Shown here: positions 6,201 to 48,361 of the stretch, one piece after another
How positions within the stretch are numbered: the stretch's first letter is position 1
How the letters are laid out: each line of letters starts with the position of its first letter
Assembly (NCBI GenBank): GCA_963704145.1
Contig: CAVPHB010000002.1
Span: forward strand, 67,878-131,877
Length of the DNA stretch: 64,000 nucleotides
Direction of reading: 5' to 3'
DNA from: an uncultured Chloroflexia bacterium
Lineage (GTDB): Bacteria; Chloroflexota; Limnocylindria; Limnocylindrales; CSP1-4
Notes under the pieces: generated by a model
Databases searched by the model: none
What the model was told of the DNA's origin: nothing
The model's input: only the letters and a program-made list of their open reading frames with translations
Position numbers and translations under genes: made by a program

Positions 6201-6977
6201 CTGCTCCTCGGTCAGTTTGTTCCACCACAGCGCCTCGCCGGTGCCCGACACGTCGCGCCGCGCCTCGCGGTTGGCGATCTTGGTCGCCGCATCCCGACCA
6301 CCCTTGGCCAGCTCACGGCGCACGACCTGGACCTGCCACAGCGAGCCGAGCCCATCGCGCTCGCGCAGGGTGCCGAGCACCTTCTCGAACTCGCCGCTGC
6401 CGTAGGTCAGCTCGAACGCCTCGCGCCGCGCGTTGGCAAAGGCGAGGTACTCGTCCGGCGTGACCAGCTCATCCTTGGCCCGGCCGATGACGTCGGCGAA
6501 GCGGCCCGCGGCATTGGGGTCGCGCGCCAAACCGTGATAAATGAAGTCGGCAAACTGCGGCCGGAGCTCGCGCAGCAGCAGCCGCTGGCCGACGCCATCG
6601 AGGACGTCCGCGTTGTCCGCCAGGCCGAGATCGGCGTGATGGTCCGAGAGCACGCGGTGGCCGAACGAGTGGAAGTTGTGCACCCACAGCCGGCTGGCAG
6701 TTTCGAGCCCGAGCAGCTGCTCGAGCCGCTCAATCAGCTCCGCCGCCGCCCTGACGTTGTAGGTCAGCACGAGGATGTTCTCCGGCGCCAGGGCCGGGTT
6801 CGCCGCGAGCAGGTGACGGACACGCTCGACCACGACCGTCGTCTTGCCTGTGCCCGCGCCGGCGAGGACCATCAGCGGACCGTCGCCCCACTCGACGGCG
6901 GCGCGTTGCTCAGGCGTCAGCTGGATGGGGCCAGCGGCGATCGTACGTTCGGGAAGAGAGACTGCCATCACCGCCAA
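3230..6977 (-). pseudogene. UvrD/AddA-like superfamily 1 helicase fused to a C-terminal PD-(D/E)XK (RecB/Cas4-like, 4-Cys) nuclease; frame broken at least 5-6 times
   Basis: The same protein continues across track ORFs 6045-6977 (AGAGTGKT Walker A), 5188-6228 (VLVDEFQDAN, VVGDDDQSIYRFRGA), 5124-5519, 4285-5127 (VYQAKGLEYE, LLFVAMTRAR), 3719-4411 (CPLQYAF), 3433-3669 (IDRID...IEIIDYKTG). The tail reads WRCGRCEYRQIC and ends at TGA 3230. Confidence 0.75.
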
Positions 6978-7056
6978 GGCTACGACCTCGGCGTGACAGC
7001 TTGCCCGTCACGAGCTCAGCGCGTTATCTGCCCGCGCTGCGCGACGCTGTTCGAGC

Positions 7057-7866
7057 CTACGCGTGGAACCGCTCGGTGTGCACGTCCTCGGCGCGGAAAC
7101 CGGCACGCCGCAAAATGGCCGAGCAGGCCTCGATCATGTCCGAGTTGCCGCACAGGTAGGCCACTCCCGCGCGGGCCGAGGCGTCCTCGTGGAGCAGCCG
7201 GTCGAGCTGGTAATCGGCGCGGCCGGTCAGGCCGGACCAGGTCGAGTTGCGCTCGTCGGTCGGGCGCGACACGGTGGGCCGGTAGTCGATCGGCACGCCG
7301 GCCTCGATCCAGCCGCGGATGCGCTCACCAAAGGCCAGCTCGGAGTGGTAGGAGACGCCGTGGATCAGCGTGTTTGGCGTTCGATCGGCGCGGGCGGCGG
7401 AGTCGTCGAGCATTGCCAGCAGCGGCGCCAGGCCGGTGCCCGTGCCGACCAGCAGCCGCGGCCGGGCATCGAGCGGGTCAAGGAAGAAGAGCCCCTTCAG
7501 CGGCCCCACCCGCACTCGCGCGCCGAGTGGCAGCGACCAGAGCAGGTTCGAGAAACGGCCGTCGGGCAGGCGGCGGATGAACAGCTCGAGGCGCGTCCCG
7601 GTCGGGTCGAGCGACACGAGCGAGTACGGCCGCTGGACGAGCTCGCCGTCGCGGACCGCACCGAGCGAGGCGTACTGGCCGGGCCGGAACACGCCGAGCG
7701 GGTGGTCGAGCACGACGCTGAACGTGCCCAGCGTCCCGGTCACGTCCTCGCGCGCGGTGAGCGTCGCGTTCGGCGCGAGCGCGGCGCCCGACAGAGCCTC
7801 GGACCGCGGCGGCAGCGATCGCCGGGGCAGCGATCGCCCCGGGAGCGGCCGGCTGTAGACGGTCAT
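7057..7866 (-). CDS. Ferredoxin-NADP reductase-like FAD/NAD(P)-binding oxidoreductase
   Basis: RPYSLVS (FAD-binding RxYS motif), LLVGTGTGLAPLLAM (NAD(P)-binding), C-terminal YLCGNSDMIEA. ATG at 7866 (MTVYSRPL) sits 2 nt after the ferredoxin stop. Confidence 0.75.
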   Translation of the reverse strand: MTVYSRPLPGRSLPRRSLPPRSEALSGAALAPNATLTAREDVTGTLGTFSVVLDHPLGVFRPGQYASLGAVRDGELVQRPYSLVSLDPTGTRLELFIRRLPDGRFSNLLWSLPLGARVRVGPLKGLFFLDPLDARPRLLVGTGTGLAPLLAMLDDSAARADRTPNTLIHGVSYHSELAFGERIRGWIEAGVPIDYRPTVSRPTDERNSTWSGLTGRADYQLDRLLHEDASARAGVAYLCGNSDMIEACSAILRRAGFRAEDVHTERFHA

Positions 7867-42043: not shown

Positions 42044-42886
42044 GTGATCTGCCCTTACTGCGGGCGACGCAACCCAGCCGGCGCCACGTTCTGCAGCCGG
42101 TGCCGACAACGACTGCCCGTTGCCGGGCGCGTTCCCAGCAACAAGCGACTCATCTTTGCCGAGCCGGCGGGCGGTGGCGGGGTCGGCGCGCTGGCCATTG
42201 GCGCGGCGCTGCTGGCCGGCTTCGTGTTCATCGGCGGCGCGGCGGCGCTGTACCTGTCGTCCCCGCCCGGCAACCCCACGCTGCCGCCCAATTTCGGCGG
42301 CACGCAGACCCCCGGGCCGACGCTCGACATCTTTGTCCAGCCGACCCCGACGCCCAGCCCGTCGCCACAGCCCACGCCCAGCCCGACCTTCTTCCTGAAC
42401 TCCCCGACCCCGACGGCGTCGTTCGAGCCGTCGCCCTCGCCAACGCCGTTTGGTCCGACTCCGTCGCCCAAGCCCACCCGCACACCGCGACCGCCGTGTG
42501 ACGCGAACGGCCTGCCGCCGGGCTGCAAGCCGACCCCGCCACCGGCGACGCCGACGCCGGAGCCGACGCCCGCCGGCCCGGTCGCGAAGTTCTCGTGGGA
42601 TCAGGTGGGGACCAGCTTCACCGTCAGCTTCACCGATACCAGCACCGGCGGACCCACGTCGTGGGCGTGGGACTTCGCTGGCCTGGGCACCTCGGACCTC
42701 CAGACCCCCCCCAGCTTCGAGTTCCCGGCCTACGACCGTGACTACACCGTGACGCTAACGGTGACCAACGCCAACGGAACGAGCACCAAGCCGAAGACCG
42801 TCACCCTGCAGGCGCCGCTGTGCACTGGGACAGACGACCCGCCGGGGTGCATTCCGACCCCGCCGCCGCCGGCGCCGGCGCTCTGA
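42044..42886 (+). CDS. Zinc-ribbon / TM / Pro-Thr-Ser-rich / PKD-domain protein
   Basis: ICPYCGRRNPAGATFCSRCRQRL, a hydrophobic helix, a long P/T/S linker, then FSWDQVGTSFTVSFTDTSTGGPTSWAWDF...YTVTLTVTNANG (PKD-like). Confidence 0.7.
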   Translation: MICPYCGRRNPAGATFCSRCRQRLPVAGRVPSNKRLIFAEPAGGGGVGALAIGAALLAGFVFIGGAAALYLSSPPGNPTLPPNFGGTQTPGPTLDIFVQPTPTPSPSPQPTPSPTFFLNSPTPTASFEPSPSPTPFGPTPSPKPTRTPRPPCDANGLPPGCKPTPPPATPTPEPTPAGPVAKFSWDQVGTSFTVSFTDTSTGGPTSWAWDFAGLGTSDLQTPPSFEFPAYDRDYTVTLTVTNANGTSTKPKTVTLQAPLCTGTDDPPGCIPTPPPPAPAL

Positions 42887-42932: not shown

Positions 42933-42960
42933 GAGACCGCCGGTGGTGACCGGCGGTCTC
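42933..42960. terminator. Perfect 12-bp stem / 4-nt loop hairpin between convergent genes (candidate bidirectional intrinsic terminator; no clear U-tract)
   Basis: gagaccgccggt-ggtg-accggcggtctc read directly. Confidence 0.5.
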
Positions 42961-42994
42961 GTCATCTGGATCCAGCCTCGGAAATGAGGCCCGA

Positions 42995-43093
42995 TCAGTT
43001 CCAGCGGTGGCCAGACTCAGCGAGGGGGGCGGTGCCGGAACGCACCGGCGTCGGAAGCGCCAGGAACTCGTCGCCACGAAGCGAGCGCTTCAC
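42995..43093 (-). CDS. Small ORF 2, copy A (32 aa): VKRSLRGDEFLALPTPVRSGTAPLAESGHRWN
   Basis: GTG sits 3 nt after the sORF1-A stop. Copy B keeps frame and near-identical length, with several synonymous changes in the conserved C-terminal half. Confidence 0.35.
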   Translation of the reverse strand: MKRSLRGDEFLALPTPVRSGTAPLAESGHRWN

Positions 43094-43096
43094 GGC

Positions 43097-43237
43097 CTAG
43101 AGCTCCGCGGCGTACGGCGCGGGTGGGGGCGGCGCGTACGACGGAGCGAAGCCCCACCGCATCCCTGCGCCAAGGGTCAGGGCCATCGATGCAATCAGCA
43201 CGAGGGCCAGCGTGAAGCGCGCCAGGTTCGCCTTCAC
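43097..43237 (-). CDS. Small hydrophobic peptide, copy A (46 aa): (M)KANLARFTLALVLIASMALTLGAGMRWGFAPSYAPPPPAPYAAEL
   Basis: AAGGAG lies 5 nt before GTG 43237. Versus copy B there are 3 synonymous and 3 conservative changes in the shared 28 codons. The upstream part of the 151-aa track ORF is non-coding leader. Confidence 0.6.
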   Translation of the reverse strand: MKANLARFTLALVLIASMALTLGAGMRWGFAPSYAPPPPAPYAAEL

Positions 43238-43269
43238 TTCTACTCCTTTCGAGCAGTTGCGGAGCACCA

Positions 43270-43365
43270 GTTGGCCGGCGGCTGGGCGGTCTTCCAGTCC
43301 CATAGGTGGAAGGTCCCTGGCTTTGCGTCCCCGCCTCACGACGGGTTTGCCCTGGACGGTTGCCC
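43270..43365 (-). promoter_or_regulatory. c-di-GMP-I (GEMM-I) riboswitch-like aptamer, copy A
   Basis: Minus-strand RNA: CCAGGGCAAACCCGUC-GUGA-GGCGGGGACGCAAAGCCAGGGACCUUCCA...UGGAAGACCGCCC. From memory of V. cholerae Vc2: CACAGGGCAAACCAUUC-GAAA-GAGUGGGACGCAAAGCC. GNRA-capped P1 hairpin and P2 stem are present. Confidence 0.75.
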
Positions 43366-43395
43366 GGTGGAGGAATCTTGCGTTCCTCGGGTGGC

Positions 43396-43424
43396 ACGCT
43401 ACGGCGGCTGTCCTGCGCGGCCAA
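43396..43424 (-). promoter_or_regulatory. Candidate sigma70-type promoter of unit A (-35 TTGGCC, 17-nt spacer, -10 TAGCGT)
   Basis: The hexamers and spacing are conserved exactly in both tandem units, about 40 nt upstream of the aptamer. Confidence 0.35.
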
Positions 43425-43552
43425 TGGCCCATGTGTACTCGCGCCGTCGCTGACCAACGAGAGGTGTCCCCGCGCACCGGCTGCCGCGCCTCGTGCATGC
43501 CACCGCCGTGAGTCGCAGCACAGGGTCCGCGCGCCAGCCGCGGGAGAATCAC

Positions 43553-43580
43553 GAGACCGCCGGTGGGGACCGGCGGTCTC
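43553..43580. terminator. Perfect 12-bp stem / 4-nt loop hairpin ending unit B (same stem as 42933-42960, loop gggg)
   Basis: gagaccgccggt-gggg-accggcggtctc read directly. Confidence 0.5.
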
Positions 43581-43613
43581 GGTTCGAGATCGAGCCTCTT
43601 GATTGAGGCGAGA

Positions 43614-43709
43614 TCAAATCCAGCGGTGGCCGGCCTCCGGAAGGGGGGCCGTGCCGGAACGTACCGTCAGCGACAGTGCGAGCTCACAGCCGGTCAGCAA
43701 CTGCTTCAC
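43614..43709 (-). CDS. Small ORF 2, copy B (31 aa): VKQLLTGCELALSLTVRSGTAPLPEAGHRWI
   Basis: Same position and frame logic as copy A. Shared VRSGTAPLxExGHRW C-terminus. Confidence 0.35.
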   Translation of the reverse strand: MKQLLTGCELALSLTVRSGTAPLPEAGHRWI

Positions 43710-43711
43710 GG

Positions 43712-43801
43712 CTAGTACCACCGCATCCCTGCGCCGAGGGTCAGGGCCATCGATGCGATCAGCATGAGGGCCATTGTGAAGTGCGCCAGGTTCGCCTTCA
43801 C
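43712..43801 (-). CDS. Small hydrophobic peptide, copy B (29 aa): (M)KANLAHFTMALMLIASMALTLGAGMRWY
   Basis: Identical AAGGAG-N5-GTG context. Lacks the ~51-nt 3' extension of copy A. Confidence 0.6.
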   Translation of the reverse strand: MKANLAHFTMALMLIASMALTLGAGMRWY

Positions 43802-43834
43802 TTCTACTCCTTTCGAGCAGGTGAGCAGGCACCA

Positions 43835-43932
43835 GTTCGCCGGCGGCTGGGCGGTCTTCCGGTGACCCAGAGATGGAAGATCCCTAGCTTTGCGTCTCCG
43901 CCTCACGACGGGTTTGCCCTGGACGAGTTCAC
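43835..43932 (-). promoter_or_regulatory. c-di-GMP-I (GEMM-I) riboswitch-like aptamer, copy B
   Basis: CCAGGGCAAACCCGUC-GUGA-GGCGGAGACGCAAAGCUAGGGAUCUUCCA...CGGAAGACCGCCC. Same architecture as copy A. Confidence 0.75.
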
Positions 43933-44633
43933 CTGTGGAGGAGCTTCTGTTCCTCGGGTGGCACGCTACGACGGCTGTCCGGTTCGGCCAATGGCCCATG
44001 TGTACCCGGCGCCTGAACGACCAATGAGAGGTGCCTCGGTGCACCGGCCGCGTGGGTGCGCGCCCGGTCGCGGATCGACCGGGTCACCCCGGCCGCGGCA
44101 GGCACGCACCGGCTCCTGGTGCGCATGGCCGTCGCGATCGCCCACACCACGCCCACGGCGATCAGCACGTCGCCAATGCTGAACACGTTGGCAAGAGGCA
44201 GCCAGCGCGGCAGGGCGAAGATGTCGGTCAGCATCTCGAGCGCCGGATGGGCCATCATCGCGCTGTTCGAGTAGCCCTCCGGCACCCCTTTGCCGAGCGC
44301 GGCCATGGCAGCCGCCCCGGCCGGCATATAGCCACCGTTGGCGATGATCGCGGCCAGGTTGCCGACCGATCCCAGCGCCACGATCGGAAGGCCCGGGATG
44401 CGCGCGTTGCGGATGACGGCGGCCAACACGGCGGCCGTCGAGGCGACATAGAGCAGCGGCCCCAGGTCTCCGACCCGCTCCGAGACAACGGTCGAGAAGA
44501 GCACCACCTGGACGATGAGACCAGCGAAGACGACCGGCTTCCAGTGGAACCTGATGTGGGACAGACGCGTCGTGTCGCCGCCGAGCAGCACGCCCAGCGC
44601 GACGCCGATCAGAACGGCGTAGAGGATGAACAT
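43929..44633 (-). CDS. Small polytopic membrane protein (hypothetical); annotated 3' end probably too long
   Basis: MFILYAVLIGVALGVLLGG... has about 5 hydrophobic helices and starts 7 nt after the GGDEF-EAL stop. The last ~40 codons overlap the conserved unit-B promoter/leader, so the true stop may lie near 44050. Confidence 0.55.
   Translation of the reverse strand: MFILYAVLIGVALGVLLGGDTTRLSHIRFHWKPVVFAGLIVQVVLFSTVVSERVGDLGPLLYVASTAAVLAAVIRNARIPGLPIVALGSVGNLAAIIANGGYMPAGAAAMAALGKGVPEGYSNSAMMAHPALEMLTDIFALPRWLPLANVFSIGDVLIAVGVVWAIATAMRTRSRCVPAAAGVTRSIRDRARTHAAGAPRHLSLVVQAPGTHGPLAEPDSRRSVPPEEQKLLHR
43963..43991 (-). promoter_or_regulatory. Candidate sigma70-type promoter of unit B (-35 TTGGCC, 17 nt, -10 TAGCGT)
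   Basis: Same hexamers and spacing as unit A. Confidence 0.35.
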
Positions 44634-44640
44634 TGCCGCG

Positions 44641-47302
44641 TCAGGACGCCGGGTTCAGTCGCACGGCGGGCCGCCGACGGCCGGCTGGCAGCGCCGCCGG
44701 ACGGGCAGCCGCGGATGCGGGCCGGTCGAGCAGCAGGCGCCGGACGGCGGCAGCAGTGAGCGGGCGGGCGAACAGGTAGCCCTGCCCCAGCTCGCAACCC
44801 AGGTCGCGCAGGCGCTCGAGCTGGCCCCGCTGCTCGATTCCCTCGGCGATGATGCGCAGGTCCAGCGTCCGGCCAAGAGCCACGATGGCGTGGGCAAACG
44901 CCCACTCGTCGGGGCCGGCATCGGGGTGCGGAACGAAGTCCTTGGCGATCTTGAGGATGTCGACGTCGAACCGGCGCAGGTAGCCAAGCGATGAGTAGCC
45001 GGTCCCGAAGTCGTCGATCGCGATCTGAACCTTGAGTGTGCGCAGCGCCTCGAGCCGGGCGATGGTCATGTGCGTATCGCTGAACATCGCCGTCTCGGTC
45101 ATCTCGAGCACCAGCCGTTCGGCGGGGAACCCGGTCTCGTGCAGGATGCCCTCGAGATCGGCCGCAAAGTCGGGCTGCTTCAGCTGGTGCGCCGAGAGGT
45201 TCACCGTCAGCAACAGCCCGTTCGGTCGGCTGCCGAGGCGGTCGAAGACAGCCGCCTGGCGGCATGCTTCGACGAGCACCATCCGACCCAAGGGCAGGAT
45301 GGTGCCGCTCTCCTCGGCCAGCGGAATGAACTCGTCCGGCTCGACCAGGCCGCGCACCGGGTGGCGCCAGCGGACGAGCGCTTCGACGCCCACGATCGCC
45401 CTGCTGCGCAGGGCGACGATGGGCTGGTAGAGCACGCTCAGCTCGCCGCGGTCGATCGCCTTGCCCAGGTCGGAGGTCATCGAATGACGGGCGACGATGG
45501 CCGAGTGGACGGTCGGATCGAACACGGCGAACTTGCCGTTGGCCCTCCGCCTTGGCGGTGTACATCGCCACGTCCGCGTTGCGCAGCAGCTCCTCGGGCC
45601 GCCGTGTGTCAGGCGTCGCCGCCGCGATGCCGATGCTGCCCGAGATGCTGACATCCTGGCCTTCGACCGAGAATGGGACCTTCAGCGCGTCGAGCACACG
45701 ATGCGTGACCGCGATTGCGCGGGCCAGGTCCGGCCCGTCCTGCATCAGTACCGCGAACTCGTCGCCGCCCAGCCTGACCACCAGGTCGCTCTCGCGCATA
45801 CAGTCGCGCATCCGGGCGGCCACGGCCACGAGCAGCTGGTCGCCGGCGGCATGGCCGAGGCTGTCGTTGACGAACTTGAAGTCGTCCAGGTCGAGGAACA
45901 GCACGACCGTCAGCCGGCCCACCTCGTTGTCGGCGAGCATCTCTTCCACGCGCTCGGCCAAGAGACTGCGATTGGCCAACCCGGTAAGCGGGTCGTGATA
46001 GGCCTGGTAGCGCAGCTCCTCCTTGAGCCTGGACAGCTCGGCCAGCGACTGCTCGAGCTGGCCGTTCTCGAGCGCGACTGCCGCCTGGTTGGCCAGTGTC
46101 TCCAGCAATCGCAGATCCTCGGCCAAGAAGGACGTGCCTTCGGTTAGCCGGTTGGCAACCATGATCGAGCCGATCAGCCCCGATTCGCCGCGCAGCGGGG
46201 CGACCATCGCCTGGCGCACGCCGGATTGGTCTCGCTCCGCCGGGGTGGGGATGTGGAAGAAGGCGTGGTCCTCAACCGCGACGCGGGCGAAGATCGGATG
46301 GTCCTGCGCCACCCGCACGGGCGTCATGACCTTCGACACGTCGCCGTTGGCGACGCTCGTCAGCAAACCCTCGGTCTGATCCTCGCGCGGATAGAGGAGC
46401 AGCTCCGCGCGCTCCGCGCGGAACATGTCGCGCGCGTGATCGAGCAGCGCGACCACGGCCAGGTCAAGCTCGCGCGAGTCCTGCAGGATGCGGCTGGACT
46501 GATAGAGCAGCTCGAGCCGCTCGTGCTTCTCGCGCTCGGAGAGGTAGGCCCGATAGGCCAGGAAGACGGTCGCCAGCGGGACGATCAGCAGCGTCATCAG
46601 CCACGCGTCGCTCTGGATGACCGTTACCGCGAGCAGTGCCAGGCTGGTGTTGGCGACGGCCACCAGCCCCCCGAACTGGACCATCTCGGGCAGCTTTTCG
46701 TACTGCGGCGCGCCGCCCGAGAGTGAGATCGCCGTGGCGATGGTGAAGGAGCTCAGCACCGCCGCGGCAAATGTCGCGGCGAAGGCCGTCATCCACATCT
46801 CGGGCCGGCCGCCTTGGGCGAGGTCCAGGCCAATGTGGAAGATGGCCAGCGTCAGTGTGCCCGCCGCCGCGAAGTTGACCAGGTTGAACGCGAGCTTGAG
46901 CGGCGACTGGCGTGACAGCACGAGCGCGATCGCGGTGCCGCTCATCAGGGCCAGCAGATAGCTGCCCGGCTCGAGCGTAAACAGGCCGATGACGGCCGGG
47001 AACTCGCTGAGCGAGAAGGAGTGCTTCTCACGCTTGAAGTGGACGTCGACGACCTTCAGCTCGGCGGCCAGGAAGCCGGCCGCCAGCAGCGGCCATGGGA
47101 GGCGCACCCCGTCCGGCAGCGCGAAGGACCGGCCGCTGAGAACGAACGCGTAGACAACACCGGTGATGAGGGCGAGCAGCAGCGTGAAGAGCGCCACGCG
47201 CAGCGCCGGTCGCTCCGCGAACGCAGCAGCGATCGATCGGACTAACGGCGTCATTTCGTCGCGAATGTTGATCCCGGGGCCTGGCCGCTCGGAATTCGGC
47301 AT
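44641..47302 (-). CDS. Membrane sensor / GAF-like / GGDEF / EAL c-di-GMP turnover protein (one frame break near 45560)
   Basis: About 8 TM helices. YHDPLTGLANR...RLGGDEFAVL (GGDEF). Then in a second frame (track ORF 44641-45654): YQPIV, EALVRW, LEMTE, IAIDDFGTGYSSL, AEGIE, QGYLFARP (EAL). Confidence 0.85.
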
Positions 47303-47536
47303 GCCTCGACCATCGGCCACGCTGATAATGCCCTCGGTAGCGGTTGCATAACCCTTTCTACTCGGCTCGCAGGGCAATGGCGGTAACTCGAAGGTACTGC
47401 GCCGAACACCTGACCCGTCCAGATGGGTGCTGTAGGGCCATCCAGGCCCCTCGTGTGGCGTGTCGGTCGCCTGTACTATTCGGTTCGGTGGTGAGCGAGG
47501 CGATCGGACGCCGTTCCGGGCTGTGAGGACGACGAA

Positions 47537-48361
47537 TTGAACTGCCCGAGTTGCGATCGTCTCAACCCACCCGACGCTCTCTTCTGCAACCGCTGCGGTG
47601 CGCGATTGCGAAAGGGCGGCGTCACCTACCGCAACAGGCAGCAGACCCAGCCGTGGCGCGTGGGACAGGCTGTGCTGGCTTTCAGCCTCCTCCTGTTGGC
47701 CGGTGCCGTCGTGGTCGTTGGCGCGATGGTGCTGGTCAAGTCTGGGCAGCCGGGGGCGACGCCCACGTCAGCCGCGGCCGCTTCATCGTCGCCCAGCCTG
47801 CCGCCCTTCGTGCAGCCAACGCCCACGGTCTTGCCAAGCCCGTCACCGCCGCCCAGCCCGACGCCGCCGTTCGTCTTGCCTACCCCGTCCGTGTCACCGT
47901 CGCTGCCGATCGAGTCGCCCAGCCCGAGCGCCGGTCCAACGCCAACCCCGACGGCGGCTCCCACACCCACACCCGAGGCAACGCCGGTCGACTGCGCCGT
48001 CCAGCCCGGCACCAACATCAAGACGATCTTCCTGGGCATCGGCAATCCGGAGTCACGCGGGCCGCTGCCCAAGACGTGGTGCGTCCGCAGCGTGACCATC
48101 CGGCACGTTTCCGGCTTCGGCACGGCGCGGCTGCTGCGCGACGGACGGCTGCTCTTCGAGGCTTCCTGCGCGGCTCCCGGAGCGTGCCCTGACTCGGTCA
48201 ACGAGTTCTCGCCACCCCGTCGCGTCCGGCTGGGTTCGACCCTGATCTACGGGTTCGTGTGCGCCGACGACCCGGCCACGATCGAGGTCGACGAGTGCAC
48301 CGATGCCACGCCGGACGGTGCGACCATCCAGATCGACTACGAGCCGATCGCCGGACCCTGA
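47537..48361 (+). CDS. Zinc-ribbon / TM / Pro-Ser-Thr-rich protein with Cys-containing C-terminal domain
   Basis: NCPSCDRLNPPDALFCNRCGARL, a TM helix, a P/S/T linker and a ~120-aa C-terminal domain with 5 Cys. Apparent TTG start with GAGGA upstream. Same layout as 42044-42886. Confidence 0.6.
   Translation: MNCPSCDRLNPPDALFCNRCGARLRKGGVTYRNRQQTQPWRVGQAVLAFSLLLLAGAVVVVGAMVLVKSGQPGATPTSAAAASSSPSLPPFVQPTPTVLPSPSPPPSPTPPFVLPTPSVSPSLPIESPSPSAGPTPTPTAAPTPTPEATPVDCAVQPGTNIKTIFLGIGNPESRGPLPKTWCVRSVTIRHVSGFGTARLLRDGRLLFEASCAAPGACPDSVNEFSPPRRVRLGSTLIYGFVCADDPATIEVDECTDATPDGATIQIDYEPIAGP

Follow-up and report, generated by a model that had tools for sequence, protein, structure and literature searches.

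What do tandem cyclic di-GMP (c-di-GMP) riboswitches control when the reading frames behind them encode micropeptides, and how are they related to the c-di-GMP turnover enzyme gene in the same locus? The question is raised by a 64,000-nt stretch of contig CAVPHB010000002.1 (hereafter, the window) from the genome of an uncultured soil Chloroflexota bacterium. A sequence-only reading had described, all on the minus strand, a GGDEF-EAL enzyme gene, a small membrane-protein gene and two riboswitch cassettes, and had proposed a genetic link between the enzyme that makes and degrades the second messenger and its RNA receptor. The shared orientation holds, the observation is borne out apart from the broken frame of the enzyme gene, and the module interpretation is supported: the enzyme, a membrane protein of the DUF5317 family and one or more riboswitch cassettes are likely to form a c-di-GMP signalling module that is conserved in the Limnocylindria lineage. 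That reading had overlooked the broken reading frame of the enzyme, the many errors of the assembly and the start of the first short open reading frame (sORF1) as a putative part of the switch.

Linkage of the enzyme, DUF5317 and the cassettes

We surveyed gene order in 80 loci, each of up to 8 kb, from other species. Of the 69 loci that could be assessed, 60 had the DUF5317 gene immediately upstream of the cassette and in the same orientation, and the order of enzyme, DUF5317 and cassette was found in 28 of 43, supporting the proposed linkage. In most of the remaining loci, an orthologous enzyme gene followed closely after the cassette, beyond a terminator-like hairpin. In four loci, DUF5317 immediately preceded the enzyme gene and lay on the opposite strand; for one of these, fusion into a single open reading frame (ORF) was demonstrated: at L074:3151-6309 (+), 1053 aa comprise DUF5317, transmembrane (TM), GAF, GGDEF and EAL regions in one frame. 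Locus L126 gave contiguous tblastn matches in the same layout, and in both loci the riboswitch cassette lies divergently upstream of the fusion. The L074 fusion can be taken to connect DUF5317 with the enzyme in the Rosetta-stone sense, and the linkage of both genes to the cassette is conserved in gene order. A six-frame search over 201 genomes of the family (49 genera) recovered sORF1 in 59 genomes and 24 genera, and the exact first 26 nt of sORF1 (GTGAAGGCGAACCTGGCGCGCTTCAC) occurred in at least 117 contigs, mostly metagenome-assembled genomes labelled Ca. Limnocylindrales, Chloroflexota or "uncultured Chloroflexia". The features of the locus in the window are listed in the table.

Table. 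Features of the c-di-GMP locus, with positions counted from the first letter of the window (SD, Shine-Dalgarno motif).
Feature	Position	Strand	Evidence or remark
Multi-TM GAF-GGDEF-EAL c-di-GMP turnover enzyme gene (predicted)	44641..47302	-	Pfam and motifs; one frameshift as assembled
DUF5317 polytopic membrane protein core, ~168 aa, 5 hydrophobic segments	44130..44633	-	PF17248
Open tail of the DUF5317 ORF, 66 codons, over the cassette-B leader	43929..44129	-	Relatives' tails shorter
Upstream conserved region, cassette B: GGTGC..GCAC, GGTAC-N5-GGGCCA, -35-like TTGGCC 43991-43986, -10-like TAGCGT 43968-43963	43963..44046	-	
Leader hairpin H0, cassette B (GAGGA...UCCUC)	43932..43952	-	Kept across homologues
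c-di-GMP-I aptamer, cassette B	43839..43928	-	RF01051, 49.6 bits, E 1.1e-6
sORF1-B, 29 aa, VKANLAHFTMALMLIASMALTLGAGMRWY; SD GAAAGGAG, GTG start	43712..43801	-	Family search
sORF2-B, 31 aa, C-terminus AGHRWI	43614..43709	-	Second sORF motif
Terminator-like hairpin, cassette B, 13-bp perfect stem	43552..43581	-	-25.6 kcal/mol, z -5.5
Upstream conserved region, cassette A: TTGGCC 43424-43419, TAGCGT 43401-43396	43396..43479	-	
c-di-GMP-I aptamer, cassette A	43274..43361	-	RF01051, 47.8 bits, E 3e-6
sORF1-A, 46 aa, same peptide with a Pro-rich tail	43097..43237	-	52-nt insertion
sORF2-A, 32 aa, C-terminus SGHRWN	42995..43093	-	Second sORF motif
Terminator-like hairpin, cassette A, 12-bp perfect stem, between convergent genes	42933..42960	-	-24.7 kcal/mol, z -4.9

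Pfam analysis identified GAF_3 (49 bits), GGDEF (PF00990, 156 bits) and EAL (PF00563, 228 bits) domains in the enzyme, with at least five hydrophobic segments in its N-terminus. The GGDEF motif is intact at residue 512 with an RxxD I-site (RESD) five residues upstream, and the EAL-domain motifs EAL, DDFG and EGIE, as well as GQG, are all intact. From these domains and motifs the product is predicted to be membrane-bound and to both make and degrade c-di-GMP, a prediction that shares the good likelihood we give to the module reading as a whole. The domains and TM segments of the multi-TM GAF-like GGDEF-EAL protein described earlier were thus recovered, but one open frame was not: the assembled sequence has GGDEF in one frame (that of ORF 44609..47377) and EAL in another (that of 44641..45654), whereas the relatives encode the bifunctional protein in one frame. 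Comparison with 15 relatives traced the break to one additional base between GGDEF and EAL, within GAGGGCC at about 45541-45547. All 15 read through this site in a single frame (...YTAK..GK.RFAVF(D/E)P...), and in the window no in-frame stops occur on either side of it.

The genome carrying the window measures 2.6 Mb in 8 contigs, with an estimated completeness of 51%. Its rpoB, located outside the window (G000:C7:94184-97521, where G000 is the window's genome), was recovered as nine matches with at least 7 frame changes over 3.3 kb. Because this essential single-copy gene is broken and completeness is 51% despite a full genome size, indel errors are pervasive in the assembly, and frameshifts or odd termini anywhere in this genome should be distrusted. 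Since rpoB is likewise broken, the enzyme frameshift at about 45,545 is most simply explained by an assembly indel and is most likely an assembly error. Alternatively, the locus could be decaying, the enzyme being a true pseudogene, the DUF5317 stop being truly lost and the duplicated cassettes being relics. Such decay would account for the frameshift between GGDEF and EAL, for the atypical 66-aa tail of DUF5317 and for the lack of the cassette in most sampled genomes of the genus. It is countered by the state of rpoB and the completeness of the same assembly, by the intact catalytic motifs and stop-free flanks of the frameshift, and by aptamers, SDs and sORFs that are intact in both cassettes, and we consider it very unlikely.

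The small polytopic membrane protein of the earlier reading belongs to DUF5317, with a PF17248 match of 94.6 bits (Pfam gathering cut-off, 25 bits) over residues 27-166 of a 234-codon ORF. The reported 7-nt gap was also correct: the enzyme TGA (44643-44641) is followed by cgcggca and then by the DUF5317 ATG at 44633. The 3' end of this ORF had been called suspect, with good reason. It lies 10 nt before the aptamer core in the window vs 90-200 nt in 60-odd relatives, and the tail measures 66 aa vs 15-40 aa in relatives. An out-of-frame TGA at 44086-44084 would yield a protein of ~183 aa, relatives usually having 181-198 aa. The long tail is probably not real coding sequence and most likely reflects an assembly error. 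In the closest relative (G002, locus L023, a single-contig assembly), the DUF5317 gene is likewise divided over two frames (L023:5644-6276), which is probably another assembly indel.

An AlphaFold2 model of DUF5317 had a pLDDT (predicted local distance difference test score) of 88; a PDB fold search with this model gave no match better than E = 2, and no mention of DUF5317 was found in the literature searched. Other families of the class have proteins of ~680 aa that join DUF5317 to an MFS_3/MFS_1 transporter (L195:1-2037 (-) and L201:100-2166 (-)), and DUF5317 seems to be a general membrane module, not a c-di-GMP-specific one. A role as a general GGDEF/EAL partner was rejected: outside the clade, DUF5317 paralogues are not adjacent to GGDEF/EAL genes and are sometimes MFS-fused. 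Because of this lack of adjacency, DUF5317 would not be intrinsically a c-di-GMP protein, and its link to the enzyme is probably specific to this DUF5317 subfamily. The absence of such adjacency also counts against a c-di-GMP module built around DUF5317, as does the distribution of the cassette within the window's own genus, where only 2 of 23 sampled genomes, including that of the window, carry it.

In the window, the module is flanked on both sides (42044-42886 (+) and 47537-48361 (+)) by paralogous zinc-ribbon/TM/Pro-rich proteins, of which one has a PKD domain. The G002 module is bracketed by such proteins as well (L023 1400-2245 and 9385-10455), and they gave no tblastn match in the 80 distant loci.

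Aptamers, micropeptides and duplication of the cassettes

The two ~620-bp cassettes described earlier are tandem direct repeats, 84% identical over about 570-620 nt, with a repeat spacing of 564-620 nt. Their GEMM-I-like aptamers were confirmed as full-length matches to RF01051 (model positions 1-87), both above the curated gathering score of 35 bits. In an alignment of 30 homologues that included both window copies, the ligand-binding nucleotides G20 (CAGGGCAAAC) and A47 (GACGCAAAGC) were canonical and invariant; C92 was assigned by its position in the 3' GCC alone. Judged by these binding-site nucleotides, the aptamers would be ordinary c-di-GMP aptamers, with c-di-GMP as the predicted ligand. 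Most of the relatives' cassettes scored best against RF03167 (c-di-GMP-I-GGC, 59-69 bits), a model in which the diagnostic position, 47, is G (GACGCGAAGC). This GGC-variant identity was rejected: all 30 aligned sequences carry GACGCAAAGC, and because position 47 is A throughout, the RF03167 label is a model-competition effect. Most Rfam matches to the "GGC variant" in this lineage would thus be ordinary c-di-GMP-I aptamers.

The cassette aptamers share with RF01051 members such as Vc2 of Vibrio cholerae the two-hairpin architecture, the GNRA (GUGA) tetraloop and the canonical G20 and A47. They differ in their cargo, which is an ordinary gene in RF01051 riboswitches and here consists of two micropeptide ORFs. 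The genome also contains a third c-di-GMP-I riboswitch (L001 1501-1578, corresponding to G000:C4:151687-151764, +; 55.4 bits), which precedes a large secreted protein, has an A-rich 5' flank and lacks a micropeptide ORF.

Each cassette continues with GAAAGGAG, a GTG-initiated sORF1 and, 2-3 nt further on, a GTG-initiated sORF2, so the two sORFs per cassette reported earlier are both present. Among the fetched loci with room upstream, a GEMM-I-clan aptamer preceded sORF1 by ~35 nt in 29 of 29. All 31 sORF1 copies compared read VKANLARFT.......A...A...GAG.(R/K)W, followed by 0-10 more residues; the peptides (28-46 aa) have a charged N-terminus, one hydrophobic helix and a C-terminal GAG-x-R/K-W. 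In cassette A, a 52-nt insertion (43100-43152) adds an in-frame Pro-rich extension, GFAPSYAPPPPAPYAAEL. Short, variable extensions of sORF1 past the RW motif occur in other genomes too. sORF2 follows sORF1 in nearly all loci, is 9-34 aa long and ends in (A/S)G(H/R)RW. Its long versions, with a charged N-terminus, one hydrophobic helix and AG-x-RW as in sORF1, look like sORF1 paralogues, as far as their shared layout goes. In a large protein collection such peptides appear solely as "hypothetical protein", without a family. sORF1 is predicted to be a single-helix membrane peptide, which we regard as likely within the same reading of the module.

The peptides are under protein-level purifying selection. 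From codon 9 on, sORF1 combines synonymous variation with conserved residues: changes are abundant across codons 9-28, and Ala19, Ala24 and Gly25 use four codons each. The alternative is that the sORFs are not genes, the riboswitch controlling a non-coding RNA and the peptide conservation reflecting RNA constraint. The conservation of the first 26 nt of sORF1 at the nucleotide level, the variable length of sORF2 (9-34 codons) and the absence of any Pfam or NCBIfam match above a family cut-off for either peptide are in line with that view. However, it does not explain the synonymous changes in sORF1, nor the GTG start and SD-like motif at a distance of 6-10 nt in 31/31 copies, nor a reading frame kept through indels. 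The G-H-R-W codons of sORF2 also vary between the copies compared (GGC/GGT, CAC/CAT, CGC/CGG). A non-coding cargo is therefore highly improbable.

A further possibility is that sORF1 encodes a type-I-toxin-like or bacteriocin-like membrane-damaging peptide and sORF2 its partner or immunity factor, with c-di-GMP gating growth arrest or killing. This would be compatible with the 28-30 aa of sORF1, its charged N-terminus and single hydrophobic helix, with the tandem amplification of the cassette and with an expression that looks tightly masked, the start codon lying within a hairpin. Yet no conserved antisense promoter or RNA turned up, in analyses that included no search aimed at them; the cassette is linked with DUF5317 and the enzyme gene instead of with mobile elements; and sequence conservation in the family is very high, unlike that of most type I toxins. 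We would be surprised if the toxin explanation were correct.

The cassette number in relatives is 1, 2 or 3, so that the comparison of copy number proposed with the earlier reading found variation. In a tree of 93 cassettes, those of the window are mutual nearest neighbours (0.29 vs 0.70 to the closest species), and three other genomes likewise have copies that are mutual nearest neighbours. Copies from two further genomes group with those of other genomes, which points to older duplications there. The cassette has been duplicated repeatedly in the lineage. Because the two window copies differ by 16% and by the 52-nt indel, their duplication is best described as lineage-specific and not as very recent; the amplification proposed earlier is real, but its recency is not upheld. 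The same divergence and indel, together with recurrent tandem copies in other assemblies, rule out an assembly artefact.

Probable transcription units and proposed direction of the switch

The TTGGCC-17 nt-TAGCGT element was recovered in both cassettes, as was one perfect hairpin downstream of each pair of sORFs. We took as a promoter a -35 TTGnnn and a -10 TAnnnT spaced by 17 ± 1 nt at a conserved position. In 54 of the 93 cassettes, vs 10% of shuffles, a TAnnnT hexamer precedes the aptamer core by 41-50 nt, and A2 and T6 are its best-conserved positions. The element belongs to a conserved stretch of ~125 nt that accompanies every copy of the cassette, among them second tandem copies and the stand-alone copy of G002. 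In G002, the single cassette and DUF5317 are separated by an opposite-strand ORF (6209..7645, with a probable start near 7290), and the cassette retains the upstream region, TAGCGT and the hairpin followed by TTTCGCTTTT. A strong hairpin follows sORF1 in 88/93 cassettes, often with the same GACCGCCGG/CCGGCGGTC stem, which is kept across genera. This stem resembles the GACCGCC(C)GG strand of the aptamer.

Based on this layout, we think it quite probable that the cassettes have independent promoters. Each would most likely be its own short transcription unit of ~450 nt, running from a -35/-10-like promoter through a 5' stem-loop, the c-di-GMP-I aptamer, SD and GTG, sORF1 and sORF2 to a GC-rich terminator hairpin. 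The candidate 5' stem-loop is hairpin H0, which recurs in homologues with changing sequence (mean -9 kcal/mol) and is probably 5'-terminal.

Alternatively, the cassettes may be the 3' part of a single GGDEF-EAL/DUF5317 mRNA lacking internal promoters, the conserved 125 nt being a structured RNA such as a processing or attenuation site. Consistent with one operon, DUF5317 is co-oriented at about 100-200 nt from the aptamer in the 60 of 69 loci mentioned above. Moreover, complementary TGACCC/GGGTCA segments lie upstream of the -35 (43984-44046 and 43417-43479), replaced in some genomes by an ACUCCC/GGGAGU pair. These segments and the GGTGC..GCAC inverted repeat, which likewise precedes the proposed -35, could serve as a binding site for a regulator or form an RNA structure. 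A single operon, however, sits poorly with the G002 cassette, which keeps its whole upstream region behind an opposite-strand ORF, and with the second and third tandem copies, whose upstream region is unchanged behind strong hairpins. The most conserved positions, in addition, fit A2 and T6 of a -10 hexamer. A similar arrangement, GGTACC...TTGCCC-17 nt-TAGCGT, precedes an unrelated riboswitch unit with a larger protein as its cargo in another genome (G024, L026:7059-7212). This likeness suggests a common promoter type or regulator site for the c-di-GMP riboswitch units of the lineage. We thus consider a single operon unlikely.

Several results nevertheless weigh against independent units. TAnnnT is missing from 39/93 cassettes, and a simple consensus scan called no sigma-70 promoter at the cassettes, a result that a single operon would predict. 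Nor did the scan call the hairpins terminators, as their T-tract is weak: the tails GTGATTCTCC and CTGGTTCTGG have 4 T in 10, below its terminator rule. Several relatives have clearer T-tails, e.g., TTTGGTTTAC and TCGTTTTCGG. If the TGACCC/GGGTCA pair were an RNA structure, it could imply read-through from DUF5317. Transcript starts, termination and translation of the cassettes are all inferred here from sequence.

The start of sORF1 is evidently constrained as RNA. Among 30 distinct sequences, its first 26 nt differ at just one base, in cassette B, and this stretch covers four- and six-fold degenerate positions (the third bases of Ala, Leu and Arg codons); since such sites are invariant here and free elsewhere in the ORF, the constraint must act at the RNA level. 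These 26 nt (43801-43776 in cassette B) fold into a start-codon hairpin of -10.3 kcal/mol with GUG at its base. The lone variant base is its bulged G and leaves the hairpin unchanged. According to RNAalifold, the loop and 3' half, CCUGG(C)GCG, pair with the invariant aptamer 5' flank CGUCCAGG. Because this flank contains the ligand-contacting G20, the distal helix and c-di-GMP binding would be mutually exclusive. The flank is particular to this cassette type, other riboswitches of the lineage having different flanks. Unlike RF01051 riboswitches at large, these cassettes thus combine an invariant 5' flank complementary to the ORF start with an expression platform that seems to include the first 26 coding nucleotides.

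In the mechanism that we propose, the start hairpin would form locally from the first 26 nt of sORF1 and bury GUG, while in the alternative state nt +12 to +20 of sORF1 would pair with CGUCCAGG, G20 included. Binding of c-di-GMP would let the local P1 form and the start hairpin close. The P1 partner of CGUC, G[AG][CU]G, was found in 63/93 linkers vs 29 ± 4 in shuffles, with a peak at one offset. An explicit two-state model gave nearly isoenergetic states (-90.7 vs -90.1 kcal/mol), with an unpaired probability of GUG of 0.10 in the aptamer-competent state vs 0.32 in the distal-helix state. From this modelling, we lean weakly, and by little more than an even chance, towards c-di-GMP switching translation OFF. 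The following results speak against the proposed switch: the columns of the distal helix are invariant, so covariation cannot support it; forcing the distal state in the window's own two cassettes does not clearly free GUG; and SD and GUG accessibility is almost equal in unconstrained and aptamer-constrained folds. Pairing of the 5' flank with the linker did not exceed its pairing with shuffled linkers (mean z -0.2). A role of the H0 3' strand as an anti-SD was likewise unsupported, as its pairing with its own SD was no better than with the SDs of other leaders (z +0.8).

As for the peptides, they may act in the membrane on DUF5317 and/or the enzyme TM domain, creating a feedback loop. This is speculative, as would be any physical contact of the peptides with DUF5317 or the enzyme. 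The fullest version is a closed circuit: the riboswitch would read the c-di-GMP level set by the enzyme and tune the output of the two peptides accordingly, the peptides, which share a C-terminal AG-x-RW motif, would insert beside DUF5317 and/or the TM sensor domain of the enzyme and reset its cyclase/phosphodiesterase balance, and, in an unusual platform, the first codons would pair with the ligand-contacting nucleotides of the aptamer. We put it forward tentatively, with the odds clearly against it.

Known systems and significance

GEMM-I riboswitches were already noted upstream of GGDEF/EAL genes when the class was described. The present locus shares with this pattern a c-di-GMP receptor RNA and turnover genes in one place. 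It differs in that the riboswitch is not in front of the enzyme gene and in that, even where the enzyme gene is downstream, a terminator-like hairpin separates it from the cassette.

The closest parallel is the CD1980.2 family of C. difficile, 58-aa membrane-associated proteins encoded behind the class I c-di-GMP riboswitches Cdi1_6 and Cdi1_8-11 (Nat Commun 2026, PMC13724677). They are repressed by c-di-GMP via premature termination, promote sporulation and have no homologues reported outside C. difficile (PMC13724677). In both systems a c-di-GMP-I riboswitch drives, or here is predicted to drive, a small, multicopy, membrane-associated protein of an otherwise unknown family, and the repression by c-di-GMP in C. 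difficile agrees with our weak OFF lean. The present cassettes, however, occur in another phylum, in an organism not known to sporulate. Each encodes a pair of peptides of half that length (28-46 aa), and the cassettes stand in linkage with a GGDEF-EAL gene and with DUF5317. Control by premature termination in C. difficile also contrasts with the situation here, where translational control is likelier because no terminator lies between the aptamer and sORF1. Given the differences in size and architecture and the homologue report (PMC13724677), CD1980.2 can be viewed as a functional analogue and not as a member of the same family.

Few outputs of c-di-GMP riboswitches are understood, and small-protein outputs were shown first in 2026, in one Firmicute. 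Throughout a whole class of soil Chloroflexota that are abundant but uncultured, the micropeptide pair described here is the one cargo of a c-di-GMP riboswitch that stays constant. The pair is tied physically to the enzyme gene predicted to set the c-di-GMP level and to DUF5317, a family without a known function. The layout is common to dozens of related genomes and looks like a compact, uncharacterised signalling circuit. It offers a lead to a function for DUF5317 and to an expression platform in which coding sequence would pair with the ligand-binding nucleotides of the aptamer. A further lead is a minimal second-messenger circuit, made up of enzyme, RNA receptor and peptide effectors, which might be reconstructed in a laboratory host.

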